Shown: positions 3,099 to 24,389 of the stretch, one piece after another
Numbering within the stretch: position 1 is the first letter of the stretch
Layout of the letters: each line of letters starts with the position of its first letter
From: a virus
Lineage: Duplodnaviria > Heunggongvirae > Uroviricota > Caudoviricetes
IMG/VR virus record: IMGVR_UViG_2869924733_000010
DNA length: 34,465 bases
Strand: one strand, 5' to 3'
Made by a program: the position numbers and the translations under genes
The notes under the pieces: generated by a model
Database searches by the model: none
Told to the model about the DNA's origin: nothing
Seen by the model: only the letters and a program-made list of their open reading frames with translations

Positions 3099-3577
3099 TA
3101 TCCCGCCCCCGTCATACCCGTGAATTTAGTCGCCATACTGCCAGCCTTACCGATGAGCGATTCCGCCTGTTTACCGATATCGCCATAAAGCGCGGCCAGT
3201 GACTCATCAACGCGGGTGAGCGACAGCGTAAAATCAATTTTCCGGGGTGTGCCGTCTGCAAAGAAAATACTCCCTGTTTCACTCACCTTGCTGATGACAT
3301 ACATGTCGTAAATCATGCCGGTGCCATCCAGCAACGGCCACGCCCGGCCTTCCTCTGCCATCAGTCTGAGCGTGGTCATCGTCAGCTTTCCGCCAGTCAG
3401 TTCGGGATAAAGCACACCGGCAAGTGTGATGTTCTCCTCACCTACACCGAGAAACTGATAGGCATCCCGTTTACCGATACGGGAATTTGACGGCCAGCGA
3501 TAATCTGATTCACGCTGCATGGTCTGATGTGGCAGCGTCTGGCGCATAAAAACAAACATACCTAACGCGAGCATCAT
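3098..3577 (-). CDS. U: P2 gpU tail protein
   Basis: 159 aa, matches P2 gpU. Confidence 0.85.
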   Translation of the reverse strand: MMLALGMFVFMRQTLPHQTMQRESDYRWPSNSRIGKRDAYQFLGVGEENITLAGVLYPELTGGKLTMTTLRLMAEEGRAWPLLDGTGMIYDMYVISKVSETGSIFFADGTPRKIDFTLSLTRVDESLAALYGDIGKQAESLIGKAGSMATKFTGMTGAG

Positions 3578-3591
3578 TTTTCGTCACCTCC

Positions 3592-6038
3592 TTAACCGTC
3601 ATGCATCATGCTGGCACGGGCGCGCGCTCGTTTATCCCGCTCGTATTTTTCGAGCGCATCCTGTAACTGGCGGTCAAGCTGTGTCCCCGGCGCAGTACCA
3701 CCGGTCAGGCTGATGTGATATTCGTTTTTACTCTGGTCCACATAAGAGCGGCCAGCCGGTGCCGTGACCGGCTGATAAGCCTGATAGCCTGCATAAGAGC
3801 TGGTCGCCGGAATATAACCACCGGTGCCATACGTGGCGGCATGAGTTCTGGCGGCGGTCTGGTCAAGTGTGTCTGACTCTTTGTTGATGACGCCGAGTTT
3901 TTCCAGTACCCAGTCAATACCGCTGCGCAGTTTGTTGAACGCATTAAGCGGCAGCATCAGCGCGTCAGCCAGTGCCTGCCCGAACATGACGCCCGTGTCA
4001 CGGCAACGGTTCAGGGTGTCCTGGGTGGCTTTGACCGGTGCAATCAGGTTTTTAAACCACTGCCACGCGGCCTGTAACTTTTCACCCAGCCAGTCAAACA
4101 CCGGCTTAAGTGGCGTGAACAGTTCCCCCACCGGCGCAAATGCCGCTTTCAGCCCTTCAACCACACCGCCGAAGAATACGCTGACAGGCTCCCAGTATTT
4201 ACGGATAAGCAACGCCCCGGCGACAATGGCGGCCACCACGGCCACAACCGGCCAGCTAATCGCCCCGATGGCCGTCATAACAGCACTGCCAACCGTCGTG
4301 AAGATTGCCCCCATTGCGCCTGCTGCCGCGATAATGGCATTGATGCCGGTGATAACCGGCCAGGCTACAAGACCAATGGCACCGATGATGCCAGTCAGCA
4401 CCAGTGCGCCACCGGCAATGAGGCCGATAGTTGACGCCAGTGATTTGTTTTTCTGTATCCAGCCGTCGAGTTTTAACACATACTTTGTGGCCGTCTGCGT
4501 GAGCTTACGCAGCGCGCCTTCCTGCTGGTCAAACAGGTCAGTCCCTACCGCCTCATAAGCGGACTGAAACTCCTTAAAGTCACCGCCGAGGTTGTCCTGC
4601 ATGATATTTACCAGCTCCGCGGTCTTCCCGTCTGAGGCTTTAAACGCAGCGGTCAGTTTGTCCAGCCTTCCGGTTGAGGCGGCAGTCATCAGCACAGCAG
4701 CGGCTGAGCTGGCCTCCTCCCCGAAAATGGTTTTCATGTATTCAGCCTGCTGGGCAGTACCGAGCCGGTTTTTATCAAAACTGGCCTGCATTTCTTTCAG
4801 AATGGTAAATACTGGCCGGGTGTTTCCCTTGCTGTCTGAGGTTTTCACACCAAGCTCTTTCAGTGCATCCCATGCTTTTCCCGTCGGTGCCTGCAGGCGG
4901 CTTAACACGGCACGGCTTCCCGTCCCCGCCATTGAACCGGTAATTTTTGCATCATGCAGTGCCCCGACCATTGCGGCGGTTTCTTCAATGCTGACACCGG
5001 CATTTTTTGCCACAGGTGCGGCATAGGTCAGCGCATCGCTCATGCCGTCAAAATCGGCGGCGGTTTTGTTCATCGTCATGGAGAGAACATCCCCGATATG
5101 AGCAACCTTATCGTTTGAAAGCTGAAAGGCGGATTTCATCCCCATCAGCAGGGCGGCGTTTTCTTCCATCGTGCGGCGGTTCGCCAGCGCCATATTCAGC
5201 GTGACCGGCGTTGCCGCCTGAATGGCATCAACATCTCCACCCGCTTTCGCAATGATAATCTGCGCACCGGCCGCATCATCCGCTGAGGCGGCGGTATTGT
5301 CACCGAGCTGGCGCGCCTGCTTGCGTAGCGCGGCCATTTCGGCGGAGTCTTTTGCCACTCCTAGCACGGCCTGCAATTCTGAGTTTTTCTGCGCAAACTC
5401 ATAACCGGGCATCAGCAACTTAACTCCGGCCATCGTTCCCGCCGCCGCAATCCCCACACCGGCAGCGCCTACTGAGGCCATATTTCCGGCCAGTTCCTTT
5501 CCGGCCTGATAACGCTGTTTTACTGCGTTAAGTTTTGCCTGTTGCGCACTGACACGCGCCAGCGCGTCGCGCTGACGGTTAAGTTGTGCGGTGGTTTCAC
5601 TGATACGGTTTTTCAGTCCCTGCTCATCATGTGCAAGATTGCGGGTATTAATTCCCACAGCGGCCAGTTCCCGCTGCTGGCGTTTAACGGAATCCGTCAG
5701 GCGGTTATATTTCGCCTGTAAGTCCTCCGCCGCACGCTTTGCGGATTCCAGCACTTTCGCCTGAGCACGGGTGGGACGTTCGGTGTTTTTAAACTGTGTG
5801 GCAAGGGCTTCGGCCTCCTGCCGTGCCTTTTCAAGTGCATGACCAGTCACGGCGAGCTGTGCACTGGTCTTGCGAAATCCCTCAATACGGGATGCGTGAC
5901 CGTTCAGCTCGCGCAGTGATTTTTGTGTTTCCCGGATATCCCCGACAGCGACTTGCTCGCTGTGCGGATGGATTTAAACGGGCGGGATGCCTGGTCAACA
6001 GCCCTGAGCAATACCTGTAATTTTACATTGTTACTCAT
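3592..6038 (-). pseudogene. T: Tail tape measure gpT with a 1-nt frameshift near the 5' end (or sequencing error)
   Basis: ATG at 6038 encodes MSNNVKLQVLLRAVDQASRPFKSIRTASKSLSG then leaves frame at a C4 run (5940..5943, plus strand); the 752 aa ORF 3592..5850 continues in another frame. Span is 2447 nt, one short of 2448 for an 815 aa protein. Confidence 0.7.
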
Positions 6039-6182
6039 TCGTGTTTCCGCTTCGCCGGAGCGCCTTTTCGCGCCATGTGATGAGTTCGGTCAGACTCATG
6101 GGATACAGTTCTGATGGCGGCCAGTGAAATATCACTGCCACATCCGCCATCAGCTCATCGACCGACAGATTTTTCGGGAACG

Positions 6183-6458
6183 TTACTGCACCGAGTTCGG
6201 CGACAAAAAACCGACCACCTTACCGGCCAGCGCCACAAGGTCAGGCAGTTCCAGCGCGGCGACTTCCTGCTCGGTCAGCATCGGTGCCGTCATGCGCGGC
6301 AGCACCTTAATCAGTGCATCGACTTCGGAGTTTGCGACCGCAGCCAGACTGACACCGCGCAGCGTCCCGGCATTGGGTTTCATCAGCGTGACCTGTTCGA
6401 TAACCTGCTCACCACGCTTGACCGGATTGTCCAGGGTAATCACATTTTCTTTGTTCAT
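6183..6458 (-). CDS. E: P2 gpE tail chaperone; E+E' made by -1 frameshift, extending to about 6031
   Basis: 91 aa ORF ending VVGFLSPNSVQ; the -1 frame from the slippery site stays open to a TAA overlapping the T start codon. Confidence 0.8.
   Translation of the reverse strand: MNKENVITLDNPVKRGEQVIEQVTLMKPNAGTLRGVSLAAVANSEVDALIKVLPRMTAPMLTEQEVAALELPDLVALAGKVVGFLSPNSVQ
6204..6210 (-). other. Programmed -1 ribosomal frameshift slippery heptamer TTTTTTG (E to E')
   Basis: Minus-strand GGTTTTTTGTCG inside the 3' end of E; E+E' 6031..6458 is 428 nt, i.e. 143 codons after the -1 shift. Confidence 0.7.
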
Positions 6459-6514
6459 GGTTTTCTCACTTCTGAATCAGGGTTAACCGGTCAGCCTGGC
6501 TGACCGGATGAAAA

Positions 6515-7032
6515 TCACAGGCCGATATTGCGGCGGTGTTGCTCCAGCCGGTCGACACCGTTCACCTTCTCAATCATGTTGATGGTGTCGATTTCGACCA
6601 GCTCCTTACCGTCCATCGTCAGCCGGAAATAGGTGCAGACCACGGAGATTTTCGACTCGGTGTCTTCTCCCTGTTTCCCCTCGCCGGTGTCGATTTCTTT
6701 CTGACGGCCACGCATGACCACCTCGACGGCCACCGTTTCGCCGGTATCGTCGCGCTGGTAAGAGCCAGCAAAACGAATCGGTACGGCATCCACGCCGGTT
6801 GCGGCGTAGAGCTCCCAGATAACCGAATCCGGGAAGCCCCGAGCGACCACTCCATTGACAGCGCATCGTCATCAAGGCCGAGGTCTACCGGTGCGCTTCC
6901 GTTCATCCCCGCACCGCGATAGTTTTCGAGTTTACGGGTCAGTTTTGGCAGCGTGACGGACTTTGCAACGCCCTGATAGCTGTAGCCGTTCAGAAAGACG
7001 TTCATTAACTTGAGTTTGCGCGGCATTGCCAT
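6515..7032 (-). pseudogene. FII: Tail tube gpFII with a 1-nt frameshift (or sequencing error)
   Basis: ORFs 6619..7032 and 6515..6850 carry the N- and C-terminal halves in different frames; break at MEWSLG/GFPDS, a C4 run at 6837..6840; span is 518 nt against 519 expected for 172 aa. Confidence 0.7.
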
Positions 7033-7044
7033 CGGTCAGGCTCC

Positions 7045-8235
7045 TTAATTGCTGTTAACCGAGGTGACCAGATTTGCCTGGTATTTATCGGTAATACGCT
7101 GGCGCAGGGTCAGGTTTTCGAGAGGAGGCACCGGTGTATAGTCGTAGTCGATATACAGTTTTCCGGCCTTGAGGGTTTCCGCATCGTTGGATTCTTCGCT
7201 GAACCAGCAGGTCGCATCCACGATATAGCCGTTTGTTTTCAGCTCACGGAATTTGGCATTGATGCCGTCAACGATGTCGCGAATCAGCGTTGCGGTGATG
7301 GGCTTGTCCACCGCCCACATGTGCGCCTCAGCCATCGTGTCGGCCAGCACCTGCGCGGTGCGGGTGTAGTTTTCAAAGAGGAACAGCGGGTCATCAGAGC
7401 AGGTACGGTTACCCCAGAAGCGGAAACCGTCACGGCGAATCAGCGTTGTGACGCCTGACTCGTTAAGCAGGTCAGCATCGGTGCCGGACTCCTGCAAATC
7501 CCAGAATACGGACGCGCTGATGCCGGTAACACCGTTCACCCCGACGTTGGACAGCGTTTTATGCCAGCCCTGCTCCTGGTCGATTTTAGCGCGCAGCCCC
7601 AGCGCACGGGCGGTGGCATACGCGGTGGAGGTGGTACTGGTGACCGTATCCCATGCGAGGAAATCCGGCCAGATGACCATCAGCTCACGCTGGCTGAAAT
7701 TCTGGCGGTAGGCTTTCACCTCGGAAATGGTTTTACAGCCCCATGCGCTGATATACCCGAAAGCGCGCAGCTTCTGACAGACTGATGCCAGTGCAACAGC
7801 CACCTCTTTGGTATCCAGTCCCGGCACACCGAGAATGCGCGGTTTAACACCGGTTACCGACTCCGCCGCCAGCAGGGCTTTCAGTCCGGTGTACTGACCG
7901 TTTTCGTCGGTGGTGCCGATGATATTGGAAACGGTCTGCGCGAGCTTCGTTTCTTCGTCGTCGCCGGTGCCGTCTTCCACGCGCACAACAACGGTGACCG
8001 GTTTTGACTGGTCAGCGATGGCCTGTAACGACGCCGCCAGCGTGCCTTTTTTACCGGCCTTTGCAATTGCGCTCTGCACATTGGTAATCAGCACCGGTTT
8101 ATTGAGGGGGAAGGTTTCCGCATCTGCATCGCTGGCCGTGCAGACCATGCCGACAATGGCCGTGGATACGGTGGAAATGACGCGGGTGCCGTCGTTAATC
8201 TCCAGCACCTGCACGCCGTGATGATAGTCACTCAT
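7045..8235 (-). CDS. FI: P2 gpFI tail sheath
   Basis: 396 aa, matches P2 FI. Confidence 0.9.
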   Translation of the reverse strand: MSDYHHGVQVLEINDGTRVISTVSTAIVGMVCTASDADAETFPLNKPVLITNVQSAIAKAGKKGTLAASLQAIADQSKPVTVVVRVEDGTGDDEETKLAQTVSNIIGTTDENGQYTGLKALLAAESVTGVKPRILGVPGLDTKEVAVALASVCQKLRAFGYISAWGCKTISEVKAYRQNFSQRELMVIWPDFLAWDTVTSTTSTAYATARALGLRAKIDQEQGWHKTLSNVGVNGVTGISASVFWDLQESGTDADLLNESGVTTLIRRDGFRFWGNRTCSDDPLFLFENYTRTAQVLADTMAEAHMWAVDKPITATLIRDIVDGINAKFRELKTNGYIVDATCWFSEESNDAETLKAGKLYIDYDYTPVPPLENLTLRQRITDKYQANLVTSVNSN

Positions 8236-8327
8236 CCGTTTAACTCCGTGGTTAATGGGTGCAACTATTTTCTGTTGTGCAGAGCATGAGACGCTATTTG
8301 ACCTGGCTGGTCAGGGGATGAAACAAC

Positions 8328-8357
8328 AGATAAAGAAAATGCGGGCAATTCGCCCGC
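8328..8357 (-). terminator. Intrinsic terminator between the hotspot and the FI promoter region
   Basis: Hairpin gcgggcgaattgcccgc followed by a T-rich tract on the minus strand. Confidence 0.55.
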
Positions 8358-8427
8358 CTGTCCTGATTTGTACTCACTCATTTTCCGCCTGACAATTTAC
8401 ATAGCCCAAATGCTATCAAATCTGACA

Positions 8428-8458
8428 GTCTGCTTTGAGCGAGGAGCGGACATTGAGC
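8428..8458 (+). repeat. Copy Z of a ~30 bp conserved motif (core TGA-N11-ACA)
   Basis: gtctgctttgagcgaggagcggacattgagc resembles the minus-strand copies at 14100..14135 and 18095..18130. Confidence 0.5.
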
Positions 8459-8531
8459 TTGGTCTCAAGTATGCTGATTTTTTTTAGCTAATATCTTGGT
8501 TTTTTGATCAATAGGTTGCTGGTCAGACCTA

Positions 8532-9684
8532 AATAGCTGCGCGGAATAGTAGATCATTTTGAGGGAACTTAGCCCGGATTGTGCGATCTGATCAATCGCC
8601 AAATCAAAACAAATCACCAACCGGACTGAGCAATGCCGATCATAGCACCAATTTCCCGTGACGAACGACGCCTGATGCAGAAAGCCATCCATAAAACACA
8701 CGATAAAAATTATGCCCGCAGACTGACTGCCATGCTGATGCTGCACCGGGGCGACCGTGTCAGCGACGTTGCCAGAACGCTCTGCTGCGCCCGTTCCTCT
8801 GTTGGACGCTGGATTAACTGGTTCACGCAGTCGGGTGTTGAGGGACTGAAATCATTACCTGCCGGGCGTGCCCGTCGCTGGCCGTTTGAGCATATCTGCA
8901 CACTGTTACGTGAGCTGGTAAAACATTCTCCCGGCGACTTTGGCTACCAGCGTTCACGCTGGAGTACAGAACTGCTGGCAATAAAAATCAATGAGATAAC
9001 CGGTTGCCAGTTAAATGCCGGAACCGTTCGCCGCTGGTTGCCGTCTGCGGGGATTGTGTGGCGAAGGGCTGCGCCAACTCTGCGTATCCGTGACCCGCAT
9101 AAAGATGAAAAGATGGCAGCAATCCATAAAGCACTGGACGAATGCAGCGCAGAGCATCCGGTCTTTTATGAAGATGAAGTGGATATCCATCTTCATCCCA
9201 AAATCGGTGCGGACTGGCAACTGCGCGGACAGCAAAAACGGGTGGTCACGCCGGGACAGAATGAAAAATATTATCTGGCCGGAGCGCTGCACAGCGGGAC
9301 AGGTAAAGTCAGCTATGTGGGCGGCAACAGCAAAAGTTCGGCGCTGTTCATCAGCCTGCTGAAGCGGCTTAAAGCGACATACCGTCGGGCGAAAACCATC
9401 ACGCTGATCGTGGACAACTACATTATCCACAAAAGCCGGGAAACACAGAGCTGGCTGAAGGAGAACCCGAAGTTCAGGGTCATTTATCAGCCGGTTTACT
9501 CGCCATGGGTGAATCATGTTGAACGGCTATGGCAGGCACTTCACGACACAATAACGCGTAATCATCAGTGCCGCTCAATGTGGCAACTGTTGAAAAAAGT
9601 TCGCCATTTTATGGAAACCGTCAGCCCATTCCCCGGAGGCAAACATGGACTGGCAAAAGTGTAGCGGTATTAAGCGCAGCTATT
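8532..9684 (+). mobile_element. IS630, complete (1153 bp), TA target duplication in a CTAG context
   Basis: Terminal inverted repeats aatagctgcgc / gcgcagctatt; TA at 8530..8531 and 9685..9686; reconstructed target gaccTAggat. Confidence 0.85.
8633..9664 (+). CDS. IS630 transposase (DDE, Tc1/IS630 family)
   Basis: 343 aa ORF recognised as IS630-family transposase. Confidence 0.85.
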   Translation: MPIIAPISRDERRLMQKAIHKTHDKNYARRLTAMLMLHRGDRVSDVARTLCCARSSVGRWINWFTQSGVEGLKSLPAGRARRWPFEHICTLLRELVKHSPGDFGYQRSRWSTELLAIKINEITGCQLNAGTVRRWLPSAGIVWRRAAPTLRIRDPHKDEKMAAIHKALDECSAEHPVFYEDEVDIHLHPKIGADWQLRGQQKRVVTPGQNEKYYLAGALHSGTGKVSYVGGNSKSSALFISLLKRLKATYRRAKTITLIVDNYIIHKSRETQSWLKENPKFRVIYQPVYSPWVNHVERLWQALHDTITRNHQCRSMWQLLKKVRHFMETVSPFPGGKHGLAKV

Positions 9685-9755
9685 TAGGATCAGATATAAA
9701 AAGTATGATTTTATTCTCCCCACATAGATGAAAAAAACAAAGAAGCATAACTTTT

Positions 9756-10332
9756 ATGACCAAGACAAATAGGCACAACTTTCCTCCAAGCGTTGTAGGT
9801 AAGGTAGCAGAGCGCGCTACATATATTTGTAGCAATCCCTCTTGTCATAGGGTAACAATCGGCCCGGATCAATTGGCGGAAAATCTTTCTATCAAGACGG
9901 GTGAGGCGGCGCATATCTGCGCGGCGAGCCCTGGCGGACCGCGCTATGACATGTCTCAGTCAGAAACAGAGCGGAAGAGCATAAAAAATGCTATATGGTT
10001 GTGCGGAGCTTGTGCTGATTTAGTTGATAAGAATGGCGGTATGGGCTACCCCGCCGAGTATTTGCGAAAATGGAAACGTGACCACGAATCACTAATGAAG
10101 GAGTGCTTGGAGGGAGGAAAGAGGCTAATGTTTCAATTTCTATCGCATCGCCCAGACGAGAAAATTGCTCTGCGGTTGATCCATTTATTGGAAGACAAGA
10201 GTTCTCTTTATCTGCCATATGCTCAAGAGGATCCAGCACGAGTCTCGGATTCTTTGAAGGAGCTCCGACTCTCTCTTACGGCGATTCGCTCCGAGATTGC
10301 ACCTGAGTCTCCGCTATCGTTGATCGTCGAGT
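9756..10332 (+). pseudogene. 5' part (codons 1..192) of an HNH-like zinc-finger protein gene, interrupted by IS911
   Basis: CSNPSCH ... AAHICAASPGGPRYD ... NAIWLCGACADLVDKN matches the HNH pattern CxxC..H..N..CxxC with the last His replaced by Ala; the ORF tail after residue 192 is IS911 sequence. Confidence 0.6.
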
Positions 10333-10667
10333 TGAAGTGGCACACTGAATTTGGCCACCTGAACAGAGGTGATATGCTCACCTCAGAACAACACAGGTGC
10401 TCCAATGAAAAAAAGAAATTTTAGCGCAGAGTTTAAACGCGAATCCGCTCAACTGGTTGTTGACCAGAAATACACGGTGGCAGATGCCGCCAAAGCTATG
10501 GATGTTGGCCTTTCCACAATGACAAGATGGGTCAAACAACTGCGTGATGAGCGTCAGGGCAAAACACCAAAAGCCTCTCCGATAACACCAGAACAAATCG
10601 AAATACGTAAGCTGAGGAAAAAGCTACAACGCATTGAAATGGAGAATGAAATATTAAAAAAGGCTAC

Positions 10668-12796
<2,129 letters not shown>

Positions 12797-12804
12797 CCAC
12801 TTCA

Positions 12805-12983
12805 AGTCAATTGTCCGTGCGTGCCGACACTATATGAATTCAACGCCAGATCGGCCGGGCATTGAGGAGCTTAACTTCTCCCTCGGCGCAGTTCGTAAGG
12901 TAGTAGGAATTAACATCGGAGAACTATTGAAACACTATGAAATCCAGGTGAGTCACGAATTGCATTCTATTATTCCTAAATGA
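12805..12983 (+). pseudogene. 3' part of the IS911-interrupted HNH-like gene
   Basis: Removing IS911 and one AGT copy joins ...IVE to SIVRACRHYMNSTPDRPGIEELNF...IIPK in frame, giving a ~250 aa protein. Confidence 0.6.
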
Positions 12984-13144
12984 ATTTTAACCAATAACTC
13001 AAGTTGGCGAAGCCTGAAAAAGATGAGCTTCGCCATTTTTCTCGGACCTTGAGTAATTAGTGCAGACACAATAAGCATATTGTTTTCGAGTGCACGACGA
13101 ACGTAGTTTTCGATACTTTGAGTATTATAGCTTCAACTTTTTAC

Positions 13145-13930
13145 TTACATCAAAAATAACTTACAATATTTGTAAGTTGCTTTGTGTACGAAAATGCTTG
13201 CGTCAACTCTTGACATCGGATTTTTTAATATCCCTCCGGAACTTCCCTTTCCATGTCTCGCAAGATACCCTAACAGTTCAAAGCTATTAGCAGTGCCCGT
13301 GAATCTGCTGATTTCCTTTTCATCAATATTAAAAGCCATGCTAATTACTTTATCTCTCTGATATTTCTTGCCTTTATAAGCGTCGGGGAAATTTAGTATA
13401 CCTTTCACATATTTATCATATACATATTCTCTAATTGTTTCCCACAAACGATAAAGATTAACCCAATCATAACCTAAGGCACACATACCTAAAACAACAC
13501 GTAAGGATTCATGTTTAGATGATAAATTAATTAATCGTGAAAAATTATCAGCGCGAGGGTGTGGTTGCTGTATGTCATGGAAATTAAAGGGGTTTACCTG
13601 AGTTACATCCATTGATTTAAAGCCGCATATTTCCGAGTAATTAATGCCTTCACTTCCAGAAATAGAAAGAGGACCAAAAGATTGATATCTTTCAAAACCA
13701 TAAAGAACGCTAAGTGCGCCGTTCATGAGCATCAACAAACCTTTTAACTTGGAAGCCAATTCATTTGGGTCGGATATGATATTCAAATGAGGAGATGAAA
13801 GTAAATGAATATCTGTTTGCCCTAAATCAGAGTCAGAATCATCATTTATAGAGAAATCATTCGACCAAACTCCACATAATCCTTTAACAAATCCTGTAGA
13901 TGGAGTAAGTAAAAAACTATAATCGTACAT
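13145..13930 (-). CDS. Hypothetical protein, 261 aa, AT-rich orphan cargo gene
   Basis: Long ORF in low-GC DNA convergent with the HNH-like gene; no family recognised. Confidence 0.6.
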   Translation of the reverse strand: MYDYSFLLTPSTGFVKGLCGVWSNDFSINDDSDSDLGQTDIHLLSSPHLNIISDPNELASKLKGLLMLMNGALSVLYGFERYQSFGPLSISGSEGINYSEICGFKSMDVTQVNPFNFHDIQQPHPRADNFSRLINLSSKHESLRVVLGMCALGYDWVNLYRLWETIREYVYDKYVKGILNFPDAYKGKKYQRDKVISMAFNIDEKEISRFTGTANSFELLGYLARHGKGSSGGILKNPMSRVDASIFVHKATYKYCKLFLM

Positions 13931-14099
13931 AACTCAAATCCCTCTTTTTTATATCCTAAATGGAATACAAAAATTATTGTTTATTTGTTATGTTCAATAT
14001 ACTCACATAACCGAAAACTTTAACACGCTCATTCTAAGTGAACTAAATCTAAAGATATACCTTTGAAAACTGAAAACTCAATGCTGGCAACGTCCGCTC

Positions 14100-14135
14100 C
14101 TGGCACAAAGCGAACATTCCTTGACGTCCTGTCAG
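14100..14135 (-). repeat. Copy X of the ~30 bp conserved motif (core TGT-N11-ACG), ~190 nt upstream of the 261 aa ORF
   Basis: 28 of 35 positions identical to the copy at 18095..18130. Confidence 0.55.
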
Positions 14136-14200
14136 GGAAACCCACCTGGACGTTCAGGTGATTCTGTCGATTATAGTCATAAAAAAGCCGCCCCGGAGGG

Positions 14201-15501
14201 CTGAGGAATTCCCAGAAAACGAGACAGACATAGCATTATGTGATCTACTGATTTGTGCCAACAATTCAATGAGATCACTGCTATGCCTGTTCATAAAGTA
14301 TGTCAGAATTTCTTCCGGGATGCCTTAGCACCATTTCATCAGTACCGACAAAATGCCCTGATGGATGCCACAGTGGCGTTAATCAACGGAGCATCTCTGA
14401 CGCTGACCAGTATCGGACGTTTTTTCCCGGGTAATGCACAAGTTAAGAATAAGAGCAAACGTATTGATCGCCTCATGGGTAATGAGGCGCTCCATCGCGA
14501 TATTCCAATGATTTTCAGGAATATCACTTCAATGCTGACACGGCAGTTATCTTTATGTGTAATAGCCGTAGACTGGAGTGGCTATCCCTCCCAGGAGCAT
14601 CATGTTCTTCGTGCCAGCCTTCTGTGTGACGGGCGTTCCATTCCGTTATTGAGTAAGGTTGTTCCTTCTGAAAAACAAAATAATCCATTGATACAACATG
14701 ATTTCCTTGATTCCCTTGCTCAATCCCTGCCCCCCGATGCCAGGGTTATTATTGTCACGGATGCTGGATTTCAGAGCGCATGGTTTCACCATATTACTTC
14801 TCTGGGCTGGGATTTTATTGGTCGGATCAGAAATAACGTTCAGTATTGCCTCGATAACGCGCCTGAAAGATGGTTAAAAGTGTCGGATAGCCCTGAATGT
14901 AAAACACCGGAATATATGGGGGCTGGAAGGCTGGTTAAAGAAAGGAAAAAAAGCATCCGGGGGCATTTTTACACCTATAAGAAATCGGCAAAAGGGCGAA
15001 AAAAGAAACGTTCGAAAGGTCAGAGTGGTTTAAACAAAACAGACAAAGAACAGAGCAAATCAGCAAAAGAAGCCTGGTTGATCTTCAGCAGTACAAATGA
15101 CTTCAGAGCGCGAGAAATCATCAAGTTATACAGTCGGCGAATGCAGATAGAGCAAAACTTTCGTGATGAAAAGAACGGGCGCTTCGGATTTGGTCTTCGG
15201 GCCAGCAAAAGTCGTTCAACAGGAAGAATTCTGGTTCTGAGTCTGCTGGCAACGTTGAGCACTATCGTAATGTGGTTACTCGGTTATCACGCTGAAAATA
15301 AAGGGTTACACCTGAAATATCAGGCTAACAGCATTAAATCCCGGCGGGTTATCTCATATCTGACGTTAGCGAAGAATGTTCTTCGACACTCGCCACTTAT
15401 TTTAAGACGAACAGTACTGAGCACAGTTCTAAACCATCTGTCCAGAACCTACCGAAATATGGTGCTGGTTTATTAGCAGTAATTTTGTGGGGATCCCTCA
15501 G
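14201..15501 (+). mobile_element. IS10-like element (IS4 family), 9 bp duplication CCCGGAGGG
   Basis: Ends CTGAGGAATTCCCA / CTGAGGGATCCCCA (inverted); duplication at 14192..14200 and 15502..15510. Confidence 0.8.
14253..15476 (+). CDS. IS10-like transposase
   Basis: 407 aa; KRIDRLMGN, VTDAGFQSAWF and YSRRMQIEQNFRDEK align with IS10 transposase. Confidence 0.8.
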   Translation: MCQQFNEITAMPVHKVCQNFFRDALAPFHQYRQNALMDATVALINGASLTLTSIGRFFPGNAQVKNKSKRIDRLMGNEALHRDIPMIFRNITSMLTRQLSLCVIAVDWSGYPSQEHHVLRASLLCDGRSIPLLSKVVPSEKQNNPLIQHDFLDSLAQSLPPDARVIIVTDAGFQSAWFHHITSLGWDFIGRIRNNVQYCLDNAPERWLKVSDSPECKTPEYMGAGRLVKERKKSIRGHFYTYKKSAKGRKKKRSKGQSGLNKTDKEQSKSAKEAWLIFSSTNDFRAREIIKLYSRRMQIEQNFRDEKNGRFGFGLRASKSRSTGRILVLSLLATLSTIVMWLLGYHAENKGLHLKYQANSIKSRRVISYLTLAKNVLRHSPLILRRTVLSTVLNHLSRTYRNMVLVY

Positions 15502-15659
15502 CCCGGAGGGACGGCTATAAACTCGCCAGTTAACAAGCTGATTTTACCGCTTACGCGGTTCTGTCGTTGCGGTGTTCGCTGACCCACTGCGCCTTTACAG
15601 TTTATCGCTTATGAATCCATGAGCCTTAAATGTCCTGACAAAATCCTCATAGCGCGCAA

Positions 15660-16277
15660 TCATCCCCCCGATGTTTCACGCACATTTTGCTGATGAAAGC
15701 GGAAGTTTGCCTCCGATTCAACACTCTTACTCTTCCAGTCATGGGGAAGGCTTAGCATCACTGGCTTTCTGTTCGGGTAATCAACACTCATAAATGGTAG
15801 CGTACTATCTACGTATGCGGTCATAGCGTCCAAAAAAGCGTCTTTCGCACCATTCACTTCAGTATTGAATAACCGATACTTTTCACCGCTAAATTTTTCA
15901 GCTTTTTCAATGTTTAAGCAAACATCTTGCCGTATACCGCTCAGGTAGCTCTGCTCAACCCATTGAGTAGTATCCTCATAAGGCAGCAATTCAAGGATCT
16001 GGTCGATTATCTTCAGATCATGTTCATCTTGCTTTTTTTTTACAGGGTCCTCAGTAGATTCATTGGATGTGTGGTAAACGTTGGTGGTCTGATTAATATC
16101 CCGCCCGGCCTGGTTCACATCACCCTCGGTTTTCTTTGCCTTCTGTTTTATGTTGTTTTGCTGTCTGATTCTATATGTAACACCGCCCCCAATACCAAAC
16201 AGTGCCAGTACGCCGACTAATAAGCTAAGATAGGTAGCTGCGTCTGCACCAAAATGTGCATTAAGCCATTCAGTCAT
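15660..16277 (-). CDS. Hypothetical membrane-anchored protein, 205 aa (N-terminal TM helix), cargo gene
   Basis: Hydrophobic segment YLSLLVGVLALFGIGGGV then a polar ~170 aa domain; stop codon sits directly on a G6 run, so the 3' end is uncertain. Confidence 0.55.
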   Translation of the reverse strand: MTEWLNAHFGADAATYLSLLVGVLALFGIGGGVTYRIRQQNNIKQKAKKTEGDVNQAGRDINQTTNVYHTSNESTEDPVKKKQDEHDLKIIDQILELLPYEDTTQWVEQSYLSGIRQDVCLNIEKAEKFSGEKYRLFNTEVNGAKDAFLDAMTAYVDSTLPFMSVDYPNRKPVMLSLPHDWKSKSVESEANFRFHQQNVRETSGG

Positions 16278-16363
16278 TTGAACTATGTCCTTACAGTGTG
16301 AGTAAGGATTATAATAACAGAGCTAACTTGCGCAGAAACGAAAAAAGGCAGGTGGATTTGCCC

Positions 16364-17269
16364 CTATATTTCCAGACATCTGTTATCACTTAACCCATTA
16401 CAAGCCCGCTGCCGCAGATATTCCCGTGGCGAGCGATAACCCAGCGCACTATGCGGATGCCATTCGTTATAATGCTCGAACGCCTCTGCAAGGTTCTTTG
16501 CTGCCGTTAACCCGTCTGGTTTGGGCATGATACTGATGTAGTCACGCTTTATCGTTTTCACGAAGCTCTCTGCTATTCCGTTACTCTCCGGACTCCGCAC
16601 CGCCGTGTTCTTCGGTTCAAGTCCCAACATCCGGGCGAACTGGCGTGTTTCATTAGCCCGGTAGCATGAACCATTATCCGTCAGCCACTCCACTGGAGAC
16701 GACGGAAGATCGTTGCCGAAGCGGCGTTCCACCGCTCCCAGCATGACGTCCTGTACTGTTTCACTGTTGAAGCCGCCGGTAGTCACCGCCCAGTGCAGTG
16801 CCTCACGATCACAGCAGTCCAGCGCGAACGTGACACGCAGTCTCTCTCCGTTATCACAGCAGAACTCGAACCCGTCAGAGCACCATCGCTGATTGCTTTC
16901 TTTCACGGCCACTCTGCCTGTATGTGCCCGTTTCGATGGCGGTACAGCAGGTTTTCGCTCAAGCAACAGCGCATTCTGGCGCATGATCCGGTAAACACGT
17001 TTGGCATTGTTCGCAGGCATACCATCAAGTTCTGCCTGTCTGCGAAGCAGCGCCCATACCCGACGATAACCATACGTGGGCAGCTCTCCGATAACATGGT
17101 GTATACGGAGAAGCACATCCGTATCATCAGTGTGACGACTGCGGCGGCCATCCATCCAGTCATCGGTTCGTCTGAGAATGACGTGCAACTGCGCACGCGA
17201 CACCCGGAGACAACGGCTGACTAAGCTTACTCCCCATCCCCGGGCAATAAGGGCGCGTGCGCTATCCAC
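16364..17269 (-). CDS. insD: IS2 transposase InsD
   Basis: 301 aa, recognised as IS2 InsD. Confidence 0.9.
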
Positions 17270-17592
17270 TTTTTTGCCCGTCCATATTCAACGGCTTCTT
17301 TGAGGAGTTCATTTTCCATCGTTTTCTTGCCGAGCAGGCGCTGGAGTTCTTTAATCTGCTTCATGGCGGCAGCAAGTTCAGAGGCAGGAACAACCTGTTC
17401 TCCGGCGGCCACAGCAGTAAGACTTCCTTCCTGGTATTGCTTACGCCAGAGAAATAACTGGCTGGCTGCTACACCATGTTGCCGGGCAACGAGGGAGACC
17501 GTCATCCCCGGTTCAAAGCTCTGCTGAACAATTGCGATCTTTTCCTGTGTGGTACGCCGTCTGCGTTTCTCCGGCCCTAAGACATCAATCAT
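17227..17592 (-). CDS. insC: IS2 InsC
   Basis: 121 aa from internal Met [13 protein letters not shown]. Confidence 0.85.
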
Positions 17593-18094
17593 CTGTACTC
17601 CAATGACTAGTCTAAAAACTAGTATTAAGACTATCACTTATTTAAGTGATACTGGTTGTCTGGAGATTCAGGGGGCCAGTCTAGCAGGGGAGGTAACCCC
17701 CCTGCCTTTAATCAAGTTCCTCCATCCCTTACGGGCGTCCGGTCAGTTGCTTGATGACAACCAGACCAGCTAGCATTATTTGCATCACCAGTAAGACTGT
17801 TGTTAGCGTTATCACTTCGACGTCTCCTCTTCCAGGAGAGCGCCACACGTAGTAAGTGCTTTTGGTTCTACCCGCCCCCCTCACTCCGCATACCATTAGT
17901 TAGCAGGTACAAGCAGCACTCTTTCGTGTGGTAAGCAAACAGGACAGCACTGGACTGACGCCTTGAGCTTTAATATTTCCTTCCGATCCATACAACTAGG
18001 TCTGTTAAAAGCCCCTAGGACGAATTCTACAGAGATGGCTATGGTGCAGGTTTCGGCTATAGGGCTCTTTGATGTAATCGAGGGTCATAACGTT

Positions 18095-18130
18095 GGCAAT
18101 GTCTGCTCCTGGCACAGAGCGGACTATCAG
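18095..18130 (-). repeat. Copy Y of the ~30 bp conserved motif (core TGT-N11-ACA), just downstream of the G stop
   Basis: ggcaatgtctgctcctggcacagagcggac; overlaps a 9 bp stem hairpin ggcacagag..ctctgtgcc. Confidence 0.55.
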
Positions 18131-18173
18131 ATTAGGCTTTACTCTGTGCCATAGATATGTAAGCTAATACAAC

Positions 18174-18701
18174 TTATTGCGGCATTTCCGGCCATTCAGG
18201 ATTTGCAGGATCCACACGACTGACCAGAACGCTGTAGCGTTCCCATGATTCCAGTCGGCTACGCTCCTCATCTGTTGCCATGTTCAGTCTGACCGCGCGC
18301 TCCAGCGGCAAAATCACGGATTCAGCATCTGCAAGAAGTCTGGCTTTCCGAATTTCTGCCTGCTGCTGTAATTCCTCTGCCGTATAAACGCGTTTAATCA
18401 CTTTGCCGTCCTTAAACATCCAGTTCCCTGAAATGTCCGCCCGTCGGTTAGCAGTAATATCCGCCACTTCAACAACACTTAATCCATCCGGTCTGATAGC
18501 TGTCACATCCTTTTCCACATAGTGGATGATATTATCTTTGTCGTACGCTATTTTTATCGTGTCATCAGCAAAATACTTTTGTTCTTCGTACCAGTTCTTA
18601 CCATCTTCTGAAAAAAACCAGACAACATCAAAGTCCTTTGTCAATTGATATTGTTCAACCGTTTTTGGATTACCCGCCGTAATATTTTTTAAATGCTGCA
18701 T
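18174..18701 (-). CDS. G: P2 gpG tail fibre assembly protein
   Basis: 175 aa, matches P2 G. Confidence 0.85.
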
Positions 18702-18704
18702 AAA

Positions 18705-20810
18705 TTATACCTGCACCACGTTATACCATGTCCCGTTAATGTATTTCTGCACCGGTCTGTAATATACGCCACCAATGTTATCGGCAGAGTTTGAGCCGGT
18801 ATCCTGAACAATAATGCCGGTATATACGCAACCTGACGGAGCCTGATGCGTCCATGTAGTACCATTATTTGCTGGTTTATATGTAGATGCACCGCCCAGC
18901 CGCATGTCTCTCACATAACGTGAATCTGACTCAGTTTTGGTGTATGCACCAACATCTCCCGCTGAGGGTTTATGAGCAGTTGTATATAGTTGCGCCCATC
19001 CAGACCAGTTAGCATCTGTGGTATCTCGTCGGGAACGAATATATGCCGGAGCATGAGCACCGCTGGTTCCACTCCAACCAATAAGTAACTCACCCTCTCC
19101 TACTGCGGTTACGCCAGTGAGATGAAGCACATTACCATAGGCTGTTGGGTAGCCATTGTTGTATGCCTCATACATCTGAATACCTGGTGTCCCCTTTACG
19201 CTCCCACCTAATGCAGTAACACGGTTTCTGGATACCAGTGTATTAATATTTATATCGGCAGAGCCATCAAATCTGACACCATTAATATTTCTTGCGTTCG
19301 CTAACTTCGTTGCTGTTGCAGCATTTCCTGAAAGGCTGGAAATAAATGGATGTGAACAGTAATAACCACGTCCATTTTTAAAATCCAGAATAGCCTGTGC
19401 GTTCGTGCTTTCTGTAGCGGGATTAGTTGCCCCCCACTTATATGTCGTTTGACCGACGACATAATCCTCTGTCGGAACAATAACCGTTAGCCCTTCCTCT
19501 GCAAGAATTTGTACAGGGAAAGCTCTGGCTTCAACATAAAAAACACTACATACATCATCATCTTTCAGGCTTGTAACAATGGAATGGATTGAACGCTCAT
19601 TAGTCTGATACGTCCAGTAATAACCTGCCGCATATGAACCACGATCAGTCCAGCCTCCGGGCATAACCATGCCATTAAACTCGCAGTTATTCATTACATA
19701 ATCGCCGTTATAACAACCAGTGGAAATAACAACGCGGGATGCCATTTCTCCTGAAAGGCTGGCAGCACGGCGAAAGATAACGGGGTACCACTTCCCGGCA
19801 ACGACATTTGCAGGGGCTGCAAACGAATACTTTCGCATTCCCTTTTTCTTATCCACTTCACCTTTGCTGTAAACATTAATGTTACTCAGGAAGCGTTCTT
19901 TATCAGGGATATCCGCACCGTTCTGATCTTTCTGAAGACGTTTTTCAGCATTGTCATAGGCAGACTTCACCGCCTTTGGCGTTGCAGCCTGCGTTTCAGA
20001 ATCACTGTTGGTGGCGCTACTGAGCTGAACAAGGCCTTTTCGCGCTGTTGTGGCATCCTGTGCAGTGTATTTCCCGTTAGCAAGGTCATATGCTTTCGGC
20101 GTTGCGGCGAGCGTTTCAGACGTGCTGTTAGTCGCACTACTGAGCTGAACAAGGCCTTTTCGCGCGGTGGTGGCATCCTGCGCGGTATATTTCCCGTTAG
20201 CAAGGTCATAGGCGGTCTTTACCGCTCTCGGCGTTGCAGCCAGTGTTTCAGACATGCTGTTGGTCGCACTGCTTAACTGAGTAAAACCTTTTGCGGTCAG
20301 CGAGGCGTCCGGGTGACGTCGTGACTGTTCGTGCTCTGCAATTTTGTCATCAACGTAATCCTGCGTCGCCATCACCGTTGTGGTGTCAATGGTCAGCTCC
20401 ACTGAGGCCACACTGCTGACGATGATGACCATACGGCAGGTCTGCGAACGCCCTGAGCCTTCGGCAAGAGCTGGCTTATAACTTTCGGCCATGTTCGCCA
20501 CGGCAATTAACGTTCCCGCATCATCGTACAGGCCAAGCTCACGCATCCAGAAACCGCCCACCTCCGGCGGAATAACCAGCTCTGCGATAATATAATTACT
20601 GTTTCGTTTGTCTTGGCTGATTTTGTTCAGCGCATGTCGCCAGACTTCATGGATAAGCCCGGTCTGTCCGGCATCCGGGACAGGCAATTTACCACCGCCA
20701 TCCCCGACGGCCATCGTGGTAATGTTGACCTTCCGCCCTCCCGGTGCGGTTGCCGCTGCCAGCTTTGCTGCACCGGCAGTGGTGATAACGGTTCTGAATT
20801 TTGTGCTCAT
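18705..20810 (-). CDS. H: P2 gpH tail fibre
   Basis: 701 aa; conserved N-terminal region and internal repeats. Confidence 0.85.
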   Translation of the reverse strand: MSTKFRTVITTAGAAKLAAATAPGGRKVNITTMAVGDGGGKLPVPDAGQTGLIHEVWRHALNKISQDKRNSNYIIAELVIPPEVGGFWMRELGLYDDAGTLIAVANMAESYKPALAEGSGRSQTCRMVIIVSSVASVELTIDTTTVMATQDYVDDKIAEHEQSRRHPDASLTAKGFTQLSSATNSMSETLAATPRAVKTAYDLANGKYTAQDATTARKGLVQLSSATNSTSETLAATPKAYDLANGKYTAQDATTARKGLVQLSSATNSDSETQAATPKAVKSAYDNAEKRLQKDQNGADIPDKERFLSNINVYSKGEVDKKKGMRKYSFAAPANVVAGKWYPVIFRRAASLSGEMASRVVISTGCYNGDYVMNNCEFNGMVMPGGWTDRGSYAAGYYWTYQTNERSIHSIVTSLKDDDVCSVFYVEARAFPVQILAEEGLTVIVPTEDYVVGQTTYKWGATNPATESTNAQAILDFKNGRGYYCSHPFISSLSGNAATATKLANARNINGVRFDGSADININTLVSRNRVTALGGSVKGTPGIQMYEAYNNGYPTAYGNVLHLTGVTAVGEGELLIGWSGTSGAHAPAYIRSRRDTTDANWSGWAQLYTTAHKPSAGDVGAYTKTESDSRYVRDMRLGGASTYKPANNGTTWTHQAPSGCVYTGIIVQDTGSNSADNIGGVYYRPVQKYINGTWYNVVQV
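19946..20297. repeat. Tandem ~120 nt coding repeats inside tail fibre gene H
   Basis: Protein segment YDLANGKYTAQDATTARKGLVQLSSATNS occurs twice in full with partial flanking copies. Confidence 0.7.
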
Positions 20811-22604: not shown

Positions 22605-23230
22605 AGAGGACTCCCGGTTGTGCCGCCGCTGTCGCCGGGGTGTTTATGGGTATGCAGTACCTTACCGTTTGATGAGAGTTCACCGCCGGTATGTTTAATG
22701 TTGCCGCGCATCGTCCCGCCCTTCTGCACTTCCAGCGTGCCGGTAATCAGTCTGTTGGTGCAGACCACCTCCGGGGTGTCCAGGGTGATGCGGGTTGACG
22801 CTTTCACCATGACCACCGGCACCGTGGCAGTAACAGAATCAGAAGCCGTCACGCTGGCCGTTTTAATTCCGCTTACCGTGAGTGCACTGGTTTCGGGTTC
22901 ATACTCAATCACCGCCCCGTCAGGGAAACGGATATGCAGGGCATCCGCCGACGCAGACGGCGCGGGGTTATCGCAGGAATAAATCCCCGGCAGAACGAAC
23001 GCCGTGTCGAGTTCACCGCCCACGGCCAGAATCAGCACCTGTTCCCCCACGGAAGGTGCCCACCATGTGCGCGAACGTCCGGCGCGATGGGTCAGCCACT
23101 GAAGCCAGTCGGTGCACATGCCGCCGGTCTGCACACGGCAGCGACCGGCATTAAGGTCGGTTTCGACAATAATGCCAGTGCGAATCATATTGCGTATAAA
23201 GCGAAGAATTTCATTGTATTGTGCATTCAT
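22601..23230 (-). CDS. V: P2 gpV baseplate spike
   Basis: 209 aa from internal Met MNAQYNEILRFIRNMIRTGIIVETD; ORF track start at 23308 is too long. Confidence 0.8.
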   Translation of the reverse strand: MNAQYNEILRFIRNMIRTGIIVETDLNAGRCRVQTGGMCTDWLQWLTHRAGRSRTWWAPSVGEQVLILAVGGELDTAFVLPGIYSCDNPAPSASADALHIRFPDGAVIEYEPETSALTVSGIKTASVTASDSVTATVPVVMVKASTRITLDTPEVVCTNRLITGTLEVQKGGTMRGNIKHTGGELSSNGKVLHTHKHPGDSGGTTGSPL

Positions 23231-23316
23231 TCGATAATAATGATTCTGTACAATCTCGAAGTAAATCACACCACGATTTCTGGTGCACAGAACAACAAGG
23301 GACAACAAAATCCATT

Positions 23317-23883
23317 ATGAGTACTTACTTTTTCTCGTCAGAAACAATGAAAGAATTGTTCAAAGATTATCTGGTCTTTTTGAACACGCTGACTCCCGGC
23401 ACAAACTTTGAATCAAACAGAAACAAAATAATTGCTCAAGCAATAAACTTCATTTCCGAAAACCCTGAAGATTGGGACAAAAAATCCCAGCACAACATTG
23501 CTATGATTGGCGACACCTTTAAAAGTTTCTTAAGAAAAAAGGGAGAAGATAACAACAGCATCAACCTTATATTCACTTGCTTTTTTAGCTTTATCATTGA
23601 ACCAAGCATTCTCTCTCCGGAAATAGAGTCTCACTTTTCACCACTAAGAACCATCAAGGATTTTGCTCTGTATAACTATAATGAATTCGATGAGCGGAGC
23701 AGAGCACAGATAGACTTTTCTCTTAGAGAACTGCCATTAGCAATGGTTAAAGAAGTTTTAAGCTCCAGCAATGTTGACACATATAAAAAATACATTGATA
23801 GTTTAAACGAAGGGCGTCAATTTTTCGAAAAGTGCGACTCCTTCTTAAAGGAGCAACATGCCAAAATAGAGTCAATCAAATAG
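23317..23883 (+). CDS. Hypothetical soluble protein, 189 aa; first gene of the S-V insert
   Basis: ATG at 23317 (MSTYFFSSETMKELFK...) in low-GC DNA, divergent from V; no family recognised. Confidence 0.6.
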   Translation: MSTYFFSSETMKELFKDYLVFLNTLTPGTNFESNRNKIIAQAINFISENPEDWDKKSQHNIAMIGDTFKSFLRKKGEDNNSINLIFTCFFSFIIEPSILSPEIESHFSPLRTIKDFALYNYNEFDERSRAQIDFSLRELPLAMVKEVLSSSNVDTYKKYIDSLNEGRQFFEKCDSFLKEQHAKIESIK

Positions 23884-23969
23884 TCATTAAAAGGGTATGA
23901 GGTCGCATTTAATTTTGTTGGATTGTTTGAAGGCTTTAATTCACTTGGCAAAAAAAAGAAAGTGCAATC

Positions 23970-24389
23970 ATGCTATCAAGAATAATTCTTATCATCTTGG
24001 CTATAATCATTCCCTCCCAGCTGATATACTATGGAATGCATAAATTACCAGCTCTCGAAACGACAAATGCTGCCACATATTTTATGTCAGCACTACCTTT
24101 TGCATCAGTTACATTGATTTTCATGTATTACTTTAGAGTTGTACTGCTAAATCATATATCGTTACGAACTCAGATTATGCAAATAGAACTCAGAAAGAGC
24201 CTTTGTCAGTTCATTCAGAGTTATAGCGACTATTCCTCAGAGATAAGGAAAAACAATCCGGAAGCGCTTTCAAAATTCGAAGACGTAGTATTTTCAAACA
24301 TCATGCTATCCGATGATAAGATACCATCTACATTTGATGGCATTGAGCAAATAGCATCGTTAATCAATTCATTAAAAAATGGAAAGTAA
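23970..24389 (+). CDS. Hypothetical small membrane protein, 139 aa, two N-terminal TM helices; second gene of the S-V insert
   Basis: Hydrophobic segments IILIILAIIIPSQLIYY and ATYFMSALPFASVTLIFMYYF; followed by a terminator. Confidence 0.6.
   Translation: MLSRIILIILAIIIPSQLIYYGMHKLPALETTNAATYFMSALPFASVTLIFMYYFRVVLLNHISLRTQIMQIELRKSLCQFIQSYSDYSSEIRKNNPEALSKFEDVVFSNIMLSDDKIPSTFDGIEQIASLINSLKNGK

Follow-up and report, generated by a model that had tools for sequence, protein, structure and literature searches.

Three palindromes in the slot between FI and G

We analysed a 34,465-nt stretch of DNA (IMG/VR record IMGVR_UViG_2869924733_000010, here called the window) that contains a P2-like prophage, and we focused on a short palindrome present in three copies in the ~10 kb between the genes FI and G. 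The late genes D, U, T, FII and FI span positions 1935–8235 on the minus strand. FI (tail sheath, 7045–8235, minus strand) forms one side of the slot and G (tail fibre assembly, 18174–18701, minus strand) the other. In P2 the equivalent position is occupied by fun(Z). In the window the slot holds two cargo units, unit A (8452–14091) and unit B (14116–18100); the palindromes stand at both edges of the slot and between the units.

The copies were delimited with a repeat search. Positions 14080–14115 and 18089–18124 form a 36-nt direct pair with 83% identity, and 8432–8455 is an inverted match to 14088–14111 (24 nt, 88% identity). The initial annotation had reported three copies of one ~30 bp motif, and its consensus matches copies 2 and 3 exactly and no other place (0.00 matches expected from 100 shuffles). 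The three copies are thus truly related and not a chance similarity, but copy 1 belongs to a separate loop type and is not an identical third member. The positions also needed correction, as copy 2 had been placed at 14100–14135, ~20 nt too far to the right, and copy 3 ~6 nt too far to the right.

All three copies share a 24-nt dyad, GTCYGCT-N10-AGCRGAC, with a cargo-side extension to AAY...RTT. The canonical form of the palindrome is AAYGTCCGCT-N10-AGCGGACRTT, 24–30 bp in length with the arms GTCCGCT and AGCGGAC. Two types can be told apart by their loops: W with the core TGGCACA (14092–14115 and 18101–18124) and S with the core TGAGCGA (8428–8451). Read on the plus strand, the loop is yyTGGCACAr in copies 2 and 3 and tTGAGCGArr in copy 1; apart from two differences in the core, S is thus approximately the inverse of W. 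Copy 1 (8428–8451, GTCTGCT ttgagcgagg AGCGGAC) is the S-type palindrome at the FI-side boundary of the slot, with aatctgaca (8419–8427) on its backbone side and attg (8452–8455) as cargo-side extension. Copy 2 (14092–14115, full extent 14080–14115, GTCCGCT cctggcacaa AGCGAAC) is an internal W that divides the two cargo units. It has the canonical AAC/ATT extensions at both sides, and the same copy with the same flanks is also internal in the IMG/VR loci L062, L072 and L118. Copy 3 (18101–18124, extent 18089–18124, GTCTGCT cctggcacag AGCGGAC) is the W-type palindrome at the G-side boundary. At 18144–18151, some 20 nt from W in the backbone-side flank, lies a conserved CTGTGCCA, which is also found in the equivalent lambdoid-type flank. 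It corresponds to the W core inverted, without recognisable arms, and may be a relic of the partner in a former doublet.

Homology to other phages ends at the outer palindromes

BLAST searches with the two sides of the slot placed the breaks in homology at the palindromes. On the G side the alignments to 115 phage records all end at 18086–18102, the far edge of copy 3, and on the FI side the best alignments to 250 phage records end at 8450–8462, the far edge of copy 1. In P2, both elements are present and flank fun(Z) (record positions 15335–15358 and about 17432–17455), one after G and one, a degenerate S, before FI. To have a sample unbiased for the motif we also chose phages by their FI protein alone. 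Among these FI-selected loci, S is located 192–197 nt before FI in 29/77, and a W-like element follows the G stop codon at a distance of 49 or 61 nt in 36/54.

Some FI-selected loci have an empty slot (L250, L284, L279, L310, L312, L318, L322), in which the G stop codon and the FI start are 129–165 nt apart and G is followed directly by a terminator-like hairpin and pF. In the window this hairpin with its T-run (ggcgggcgaattgcccgc attttcttt) is conserved at 8332–8360 (minus strand), next to a homologue of P2's annotated pF activator (Ogr) site at about 8303–8330 (minus strand), which represents the real late-promoter element of the region. Since the hairpin lies downstream of the entire cargo module, it is the predicted terminator of the V–G operon, judging from its sequence. 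Comparison of occupied and empty slots shows that the entire module is inserted between the G stop codon and this hairpin, in the order outer flank 18125–18173, W...cargo...S, outer flank 8362–8427. Of the two outer flanks, the G-side one separates W from the G stop codon and the FI-side one separates S from the conserved terminator; both are missing from the empty-slot P2-like phages. The two are imperfect inverted repeats of each other (TTGTAYT...TTACATA...AATCTGAYAG). A 10-nt match to the ERIC1R primer had made us suspect kinship with the enterobacterial repetitive intergenic consensus (ERIC), or intergenic repeat unit (IRU). This idea was dropped because the FI-side outer flank, found in 940/5426 E. 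coli genomes, is present there in one copy only.

Another type of locus in the FI-selected sample, represented by L245, L246, L266, L288 and ~28 others, has a serine invertase gene (PF00239 and HTH_7) that ends just before FI. In these loci G is often unrecognisable, and the phages presumably carry an invertible tail-fibre segment.

Cargo and backbone appear to be joined within the palindromes

Identical cargo ends were found in different backbones, which made it possible to ask which nucleotides of each palindrome follow the cargo and which follow the backbone. For W, the parts that track the cargo are the 4 neighbouring nucleotides, the 5′ arm and loop nucleotides 1–2, and those that track the backbone are loop nucleotide 10 (G in the P2 type, A in the lambdoid type), the 3′ arm and the flank. 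The 5′ arm of S is specific to the backbone (GTCTGCT in 30/30 P2-type and GTCCGCT in 29/29 lambdoid-type elements), and loop nucleotides 9–10 together with the 3′ arm vary with the cargo. When per-position identity was calculated over distinct cargoes, polymorphism was confined to the cargo-side half of the element in 4/4 data sets. The FI-selected loci, anchored by the outer flank, gave the same picture: the backbone-side arm of S reads AGCAGAC in 16/22, with 11 variants of the cargo-side arm, and that of W reads GTCCGCT in 18/28, with 13 variants of the cargo-side arm. One locus, L248, has only the backbone-side half of S left (CTCGCTCAA AGCAGGC tgtcag, ~215 nt before FI), and foreign DNA starts in the loop. 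No inverted cassette was found among 88 distinct cargo ends: none of them recurs in reverse beside the other type of element, whereas 38 recur in the same orientation.

Since the cargo carries one half of the element along and the backbone retains the other, the junction falls within the element. From these sequence patterns we conclude that the predicted unit of exchange begins and ends inside the palindromes and that S and W are not interchangeable.

The same palindromes bound cargo in other phages

The initial annotation had called for a search of other prophages for the motif next to cargo genes. When IMG/VR was scanned for the W pattern, at least 120 loci matched. The P2 G gene is located beside the motif in 47/120 of the matches listed; in the remaining listed loci W is found beside DUF977/lygF and replication genes (lambdoid phages like mEp460 and Rac), beside a P2-type gpA, or beside umuC. 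In every backbone class among these matches, conservation on the backbone side extends as far as the element, and the sequence past it is unrelated. The motif thus brackets cargo slots in P2-like, lambdoid and other phages. S...W with a fixed relative orientation is the arrangement seen most often, in 47 loci among the matches listed, and several loci carry tandem units joined as W-15 to 18 nt-S (L021, L046, L099, L153, L155, L221, L230). Cargo genes are found on either strand in a ratio of about 2:1 among 68 distinct cassettes. The reference genomes of P4 and of P2, at its tin/old hotspot, contain no further copies.

Two further loci carry members of the family. In the Qin prophage of E. coli K-12 (L244), a degenerate S-like copy (4018–4041) and a W-like copy (5009–5032) bracket flxA–ydfV, beside relBE–hokD; the W-like copy lies within the annotated ydfV open reading frame (ORF). 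In a GC-rich IMG/VR contig (L076), a 6.6-kb segment is flanked by five hairpins of the family whose arms are extended to CAATGTCCGCT...AGCGGACATTG. Its terminal W copies are in opposite orientation, unlike those of the phage slots, and its last ORF (5251–6861, 536 aa) looks like a serine recombinase from its N-terminal residues only.

Relatives in bacterial genomes and hairpin structure

We scanned one genome per species for the 24-mer. The same 24-mer is present in Enterobacterales (Pantoea, Erwinia, Mixta, Klebsiella, Enterobacter, Citrobacter, Leclercia, Phytobacter, Rahnella) and is abundant in metagenome-assembled genomes (MAGs) of Alphaproteobacteria (Xanthobacteraceae, Pseudolabrys, Methyloceanibacter). 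In these MAGs, most of the intergenic regions that separate ordinary genes contain two or three hairpins, ~21 nt apart, that have the same arms and the loops GGCAC, GGGGGTAA or GACCCAA; there are up to 17 in 8 kb, and many contigs per MAG carry them. Their loops read attGGCACaa, ttcGGGGGtaa and tttGACCCaa in L144, L225, L233, L137 and ~80 other loci. These hairpins appear to be a family resembling repetitive extragenic palindromes (REPs) that shares the exact 24-mer with enterobacterial phages. In [Erwinia] mediterraneensis, ordinary operons are separated by W–S doublets. In E. coli, a match was found in 2247/5426 complete genomes, the median number of places per genome was one and the maximum 4, and the copies were confined to prophage slots in the cases examined.

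For each of the three copies in the window, at least one strand is able to form a hairpin, with folding energies between –11 and –17 kcal/mol. The arms, however, are conserved at the level of sequence: only 9/488 non-consensus pairs are compensated (488 unique elements), so that a purely structural element finds no support. We considered an RNA hairpin formed on one transcript strand and rejected it, because the best-folding strand differs among the copies and z-scores are mostly weak. An intrinsic terminator was likewise rejected, as a terminator scan was negative at copies 2 and 3 and no T-run follows the palindromes. An Rfam scan of 8000–18400 with E-values gave hits at chance level only and no family at the copies. 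In the loci that were retrieved, a motif regular expression applied to every ORF detected no gene for a REP-associated tyrosine transposase (RAYT).

A model of cassette exchange

We consider it probable that the palindromes are junctions for cassette exchange, with two non-interchangeable cores between which the S–W segment is swapped. Incoming DNA from a phage, a prophage or the chromosome that carries the same S/W pair would recombine once in S and once in W, and the segment between them would be replaced as a unit. Because the cores differ and face each other, S would not recombine with W, and the cassette would be neither inverted nor deleted. An extra W, or a W-18 nt-S junction, would be the trace of the addition of a second unit, the W at 14092 being an example. 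The crossover itself would take place within the 7-nt core. It could be catalysed by a recombinase that reads the sequence-conserved arms, or else result from annealing or homologous recombination on ~24–30 bp of identity; for E. coli we lean slightly towards the latter. That the motifs could be cassette recombination sites had been raised in the initial annotation as the second option, and it is supported by the homology breaks at the elements, by identical cargoes joined to different backbones inside the element, and by the W-18 nt-S tandems; it also agrees with what a review relates of Nilsson et al. (2004; see below).

Several observations weigh against this model. The slot contains no recombinase candidate, only transposases of insertion sequences (ISs), and no obvious candidate is common to P2-like and lambdoid phages. 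The 10-nt spacer exceeds that of classical tyrosine-recombinase sites. The element is not universal: 7 FI-selected loci have an empty slot, 32/77 carry a serine invertase gene before FI without S and W, and several copies are degenerate, among them P2's own S. There are only ~5–6 informative transfers of cargo between backbone types, so that a crossover in the 7-nt core is not statistically separated from one anywhere in the ~24 bp. Finally, the relatives in other bacteria behave as ordinary REP-like intergenic repeats, so that the primary function of the palindromes could be unrelated to exchange.

A bolder form of the proposal is that S and W are the targets of a site-specific or hairpin-specific recombination system, which would constitute a natural means of exchanging cassettes across phages and chromosomes. 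We regard this as possible, if on the unlikely side. It would mean that accessory and defence genes are moved among P2-like, lambdoid and other temperate phages and REP-bearing chromosomes throughout the Proteobacteria, by at least two mutually incompatible cores set on identical arms (four in Alphaproteobacteria), and it would explain the fast turnover of defence hotspots at fixed positions.

Alternative explanations

In the initial annotation the copies were primarily read as Ogr/Delta-dependent promoters that tie cargo expression to late induction, and some features agree with this. The prophage encodes Ogr (1635–1916, PF04606), the motif contains a partial TGT...ACA-type dyad within a P2-like late region, and a cargo unit follows each copy in the window. 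Yet the TGT/TGA-N11-ACA/ACG dyad, then regarded as the core, forms only the inner part of GTCYGCT-N10-AGCRGAC, and its loose form TG[TA]-N11-AC[AG] has 89 matches in the window. The placement upstream of each cargo unit holds by position here but is no general rule, given cargo on both strands. P2's annotated activator sites (pO/pP, pV and pF; P2 positions 3057–3087, 10239–10266 and 17555–17583), to which a comparison had been proposed, are GTTGT...ACAAC-like, centred 55–58 nt before the starts, and located at other places. The palindromes differ from them in their half-sites and in their N11 spacing (as against TGT-N12-ACA), and they do not lie at –55 of mapped starts; copy 1 is ~110 nt farther from FI than the pF site homologue. 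A consensus scan of 13900–14200 and 17675–18180 found no –10/–35 pair of sigma-70 type, and no –10-like element, after copies 2 and 3. The motif is moreover found beyond P2/P4-type elements, in Alphaproteobacterial chromosomes and at the slots of mEp460/Rac-like phages and beside umuC; the argument here is that those backbones are unrelated to P2/P4, with no scan for Ogr/Delta genes in them. Late expression of cargo has a simpler explanation in any case: with the conserved terminator downstream of the module, co-oriented cargo may be transcribed late by read-through from pV. We therefore reject the promoter reading, which we hold to be highly improbable.

A second alternative starts from the relatives in bacterial genomes. 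The palindromes could be REP-like structural or insulator elements that act at the RNA or DNA level, for example by protecting mRNA 3′ ends, by blocking read-through between late operons that are silent and cargo that the lysogen expresses, or by binding gyrase or IHF; E. coli REPs and the bacterial interspersed mosaic elements (BIMEs) that they form are bound by host proteins such as these. Cargo turnover would then be a by-product, because conserved elements offer short shared homology. This would account for the intergenic relatives between ordinary operons (W–S doublets in [Erwinia] mediterraneensis; hairpin sets of types W, G and D in MAGs of Xanthobacteraceae and Pseudolabrys), for the position of W just after the last gene of the upstream operon (G or lygF), and for the ability of every copy to fold. 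It also agrees with an excess of G·T-compatible variants on one strand (194 vs. 87). It sits badly, however, with the change of best-folding strand among the three copies and their mostly weak z-scores, with the near absence of compensatory change while arms and loop cores are kept as sequence, and with the missing T-runs. Nor does it fit the low copy number in E. coli, where the cases examined were in prophage slots only, and it leaves the polymorphism restricted to the cargo side unexplained. We judge it unlikely. The palindromes might instead be an inert relic. An old insertion between G and the terminator, resembling a transposon or a miniature inverted-repeat transposable element (MITE), would have had long inverted terminal repeats, and the palindromes would be their inner ends. 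Compared with empty-slot phages the whole module does look like an insertion with imperfect inverted ends of ~75 nt. What recurs in unrelated phage slots and in tandem junctions, though, is the hairpin and not the P2-specific outer flank, which is single-copy in E. coli, and arms and cores are conserved while the sequence past them is unrelated; a relic is accordingly quite improbable. Recombination sites of an invertase of the Gin/Hin/Pin kind were rejected: there is no invertase in the slot, there are no inverted cassettes, and the invertase-bearing P2-like phages lack S and W. The palindrome does not appear to resemble the 26-bp gix and hix sites either.

Relation to known systems and implications

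According to a review (PMC8987985), Nilsson et al. (2004) found that inverted repeats flank fun and enable site-specific recombination. The elements described here are those that flank fun(Z) in P2, and their existence and the idea of recombination are therefore already published. As reported in that review, the P2 Z/fun inverted repeats of Nilsson, Karlsson and Haggård-Ljungquist (2004, Mol Biol Evol 21:1) share both the locus, G–FI, and the interpretation as exchange; compared with the P2 locus, the window adds a third, internal copy, two cargo units and many ISs. Our literature searches, which the 2004 paper itself lay outside, found no open paper that prints the motif, and the single sentence in the review was the only description. 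The text of that primary paper aside, the literature covered contains no description of the following, which come from the sequence comparisons: the two-core anatomy of S and W, the linkage of half-elements to cargo and backbone, the W–S tandem junctions, the use of the palindromes in lambdoid phages and beside gpA and umuC, and the REP-like relatives. On these comparisons, the window represents one more case of an already known type of element, here riddled with ISs, with the promoter reading rejected and the recombination-site alternative supported.

With REPs, BIMEs and REPINs (REP doublets forming hairpins) the palindromes share the nature of short intergenic palindromes whose variant types alternate, as Y and Z REPs do in BIMEs. 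They likewise form inverted W-18 nt-S doublets in Erwinia, Phytobacter, Enterobacter and Klebsiella, and they are dense in Alphaproteobacterial MAGs. They differ in that their sequence is unrelated to E. coli REPs, that there is ~1 copy per E. coli genome, in prophages, that conservation extends to the loop and is not limited to the stem, and that the members stand kilobases apart around cargo.

The arrangement of inverted conserved arms around an asymmetric invariant core resembles heterospecific pairs such as loxP/lox2272 and FRT/F3. As in recombinase-mediated cassette exchange, two cores that do not cross would let a cassette be replaced without inversion or loss. Tyrosine-recombinase sites differ from S and W, which have arms of 7–10 bp and a 10-nt spacer with a 7-nt invariant part, as against 6–8 nt classically. 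The resemblance to lox and FRT is a functional analogy only. The W core may also resemble the spacer of the R64 shufflon (GTGCCAA), a similarity on which no argument here relies. Integron attC sites are also imperfect palindromes at cassette boundaries, in arrays of unrelated, promoterless or self-expressed cassettes with defence-rich cargo. S and W, in contrast, lack the GTTRRRY and RYYYAAC boxes, the slot has transposases only and no integrase (intI), each cassette has two inverted elements instead of one, and the boundary lies at the centre of the palindrome and not at its foot. Lambdoid phages have short conserved "boundary sequences" at module edges and moron flanks, which offer recombination sites between otherwise unrelated genomes. 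Compared with these, S and W are one family of palindromes across unrelated phages, with a defined polarity and two cores.

Anti-phage systems have one of their major reservoirs in P2-like prophages. For the hotspots of P2 and P4, Rousset et al. (2022; PMC9122126) described the mechanism of gene exchange as unknown and only speculated on a role of the cos ends. If the exchange model is right, the palindromes provide a concrete, mutable handle on exchange in the G–FI slot, with the exchanged unit defined to the nucleotide, and a simple search key for cargo cassettes. They also predict that cargo can be traded at the lygF-side slot of mEp460/Rac-like phages and at flxA–ydfV in the K-12 Qin prophage. 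Should a dedicated enzyme exist, it would make this a new system of cassette mobilisation; if not, the palindromes would be natural, short and portable homology arms.

Cargo units and other features of the window

An uninterrupted version of the slot is found in the IMG/VR locus L118. On the plus strand its order is S, an HNH-like gene, a convergent 261-aa gene and the internal W, followed by an intrinsic terminator, a 227-aa membrane-protein gene, a 486-nt leader, W and G. In the window five ISs have entered the slot (8528–17674), and IS DNA makes up more than half of it. Unit A, which corresponds to 6975–8984 in L118, consists of the HNH-like gene (9756–10424, plus strand; 250 aa when intact), whose 3′ end is cut here and which matches candidate-defence models of PADLOC, and the 261-aa ORF (13145–13930, minus strand). 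It is interrupted by an IS630-family element (8528–9688) and by an IS3-family element (10329–12808) with a nested IS30 (10668–11888).

Unit B consists of the membrane-protein gene (15660–16277, minus strand; 227 aa in L118) with its own terminator. An IS2-like element (16361–17674) is located within its non-coding leader, and an IS with a DDE_Tnp_1 transposase (about 14186–15516, within 14180–15520) splits the terminator. This IS sits inside the loop of the terminator hairpin and separates the stem into AGCCGCCCCGGAGGG and CCCGGAGGGACGGCT; in L118 the terminator is intact. From its position it looks like a hairpin-targeting insertion.

Within the 45 nt on the cargo side of W, a stretch RTTGyTrAyAT...TTAATyr...GGGGAGCAGGTCA is shared by L098, L100, L106, L049, L004 and other loci. 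It is found at a fixed 29–30 nt from W in 10/68 distinct cargoes, and in a looser form, judged by eye, in ~10 more, and is absent at the three copies in the window. It may be a portable leader, a ribosome-binding region or a further structured element.

Beyond G lies H (18705–20810, minus strand). A second accessory slot (23221–24389) is present between V and the phage gene S, at the position of orf30 in P2, and has no palindromes. Its two plus-strand ORFs (220 and 139 aa), without a convincing Pfam family, run opposite to the late genes. At the other end of the window, ogr adjoins a host gene for a U32-family peptidase (1–1362), and the prophage ends just past ogr. The attachment junction therefore falls within 1363–1634, from which it follows that the integrase must lie at the opposite end of the prophage, outside the window.

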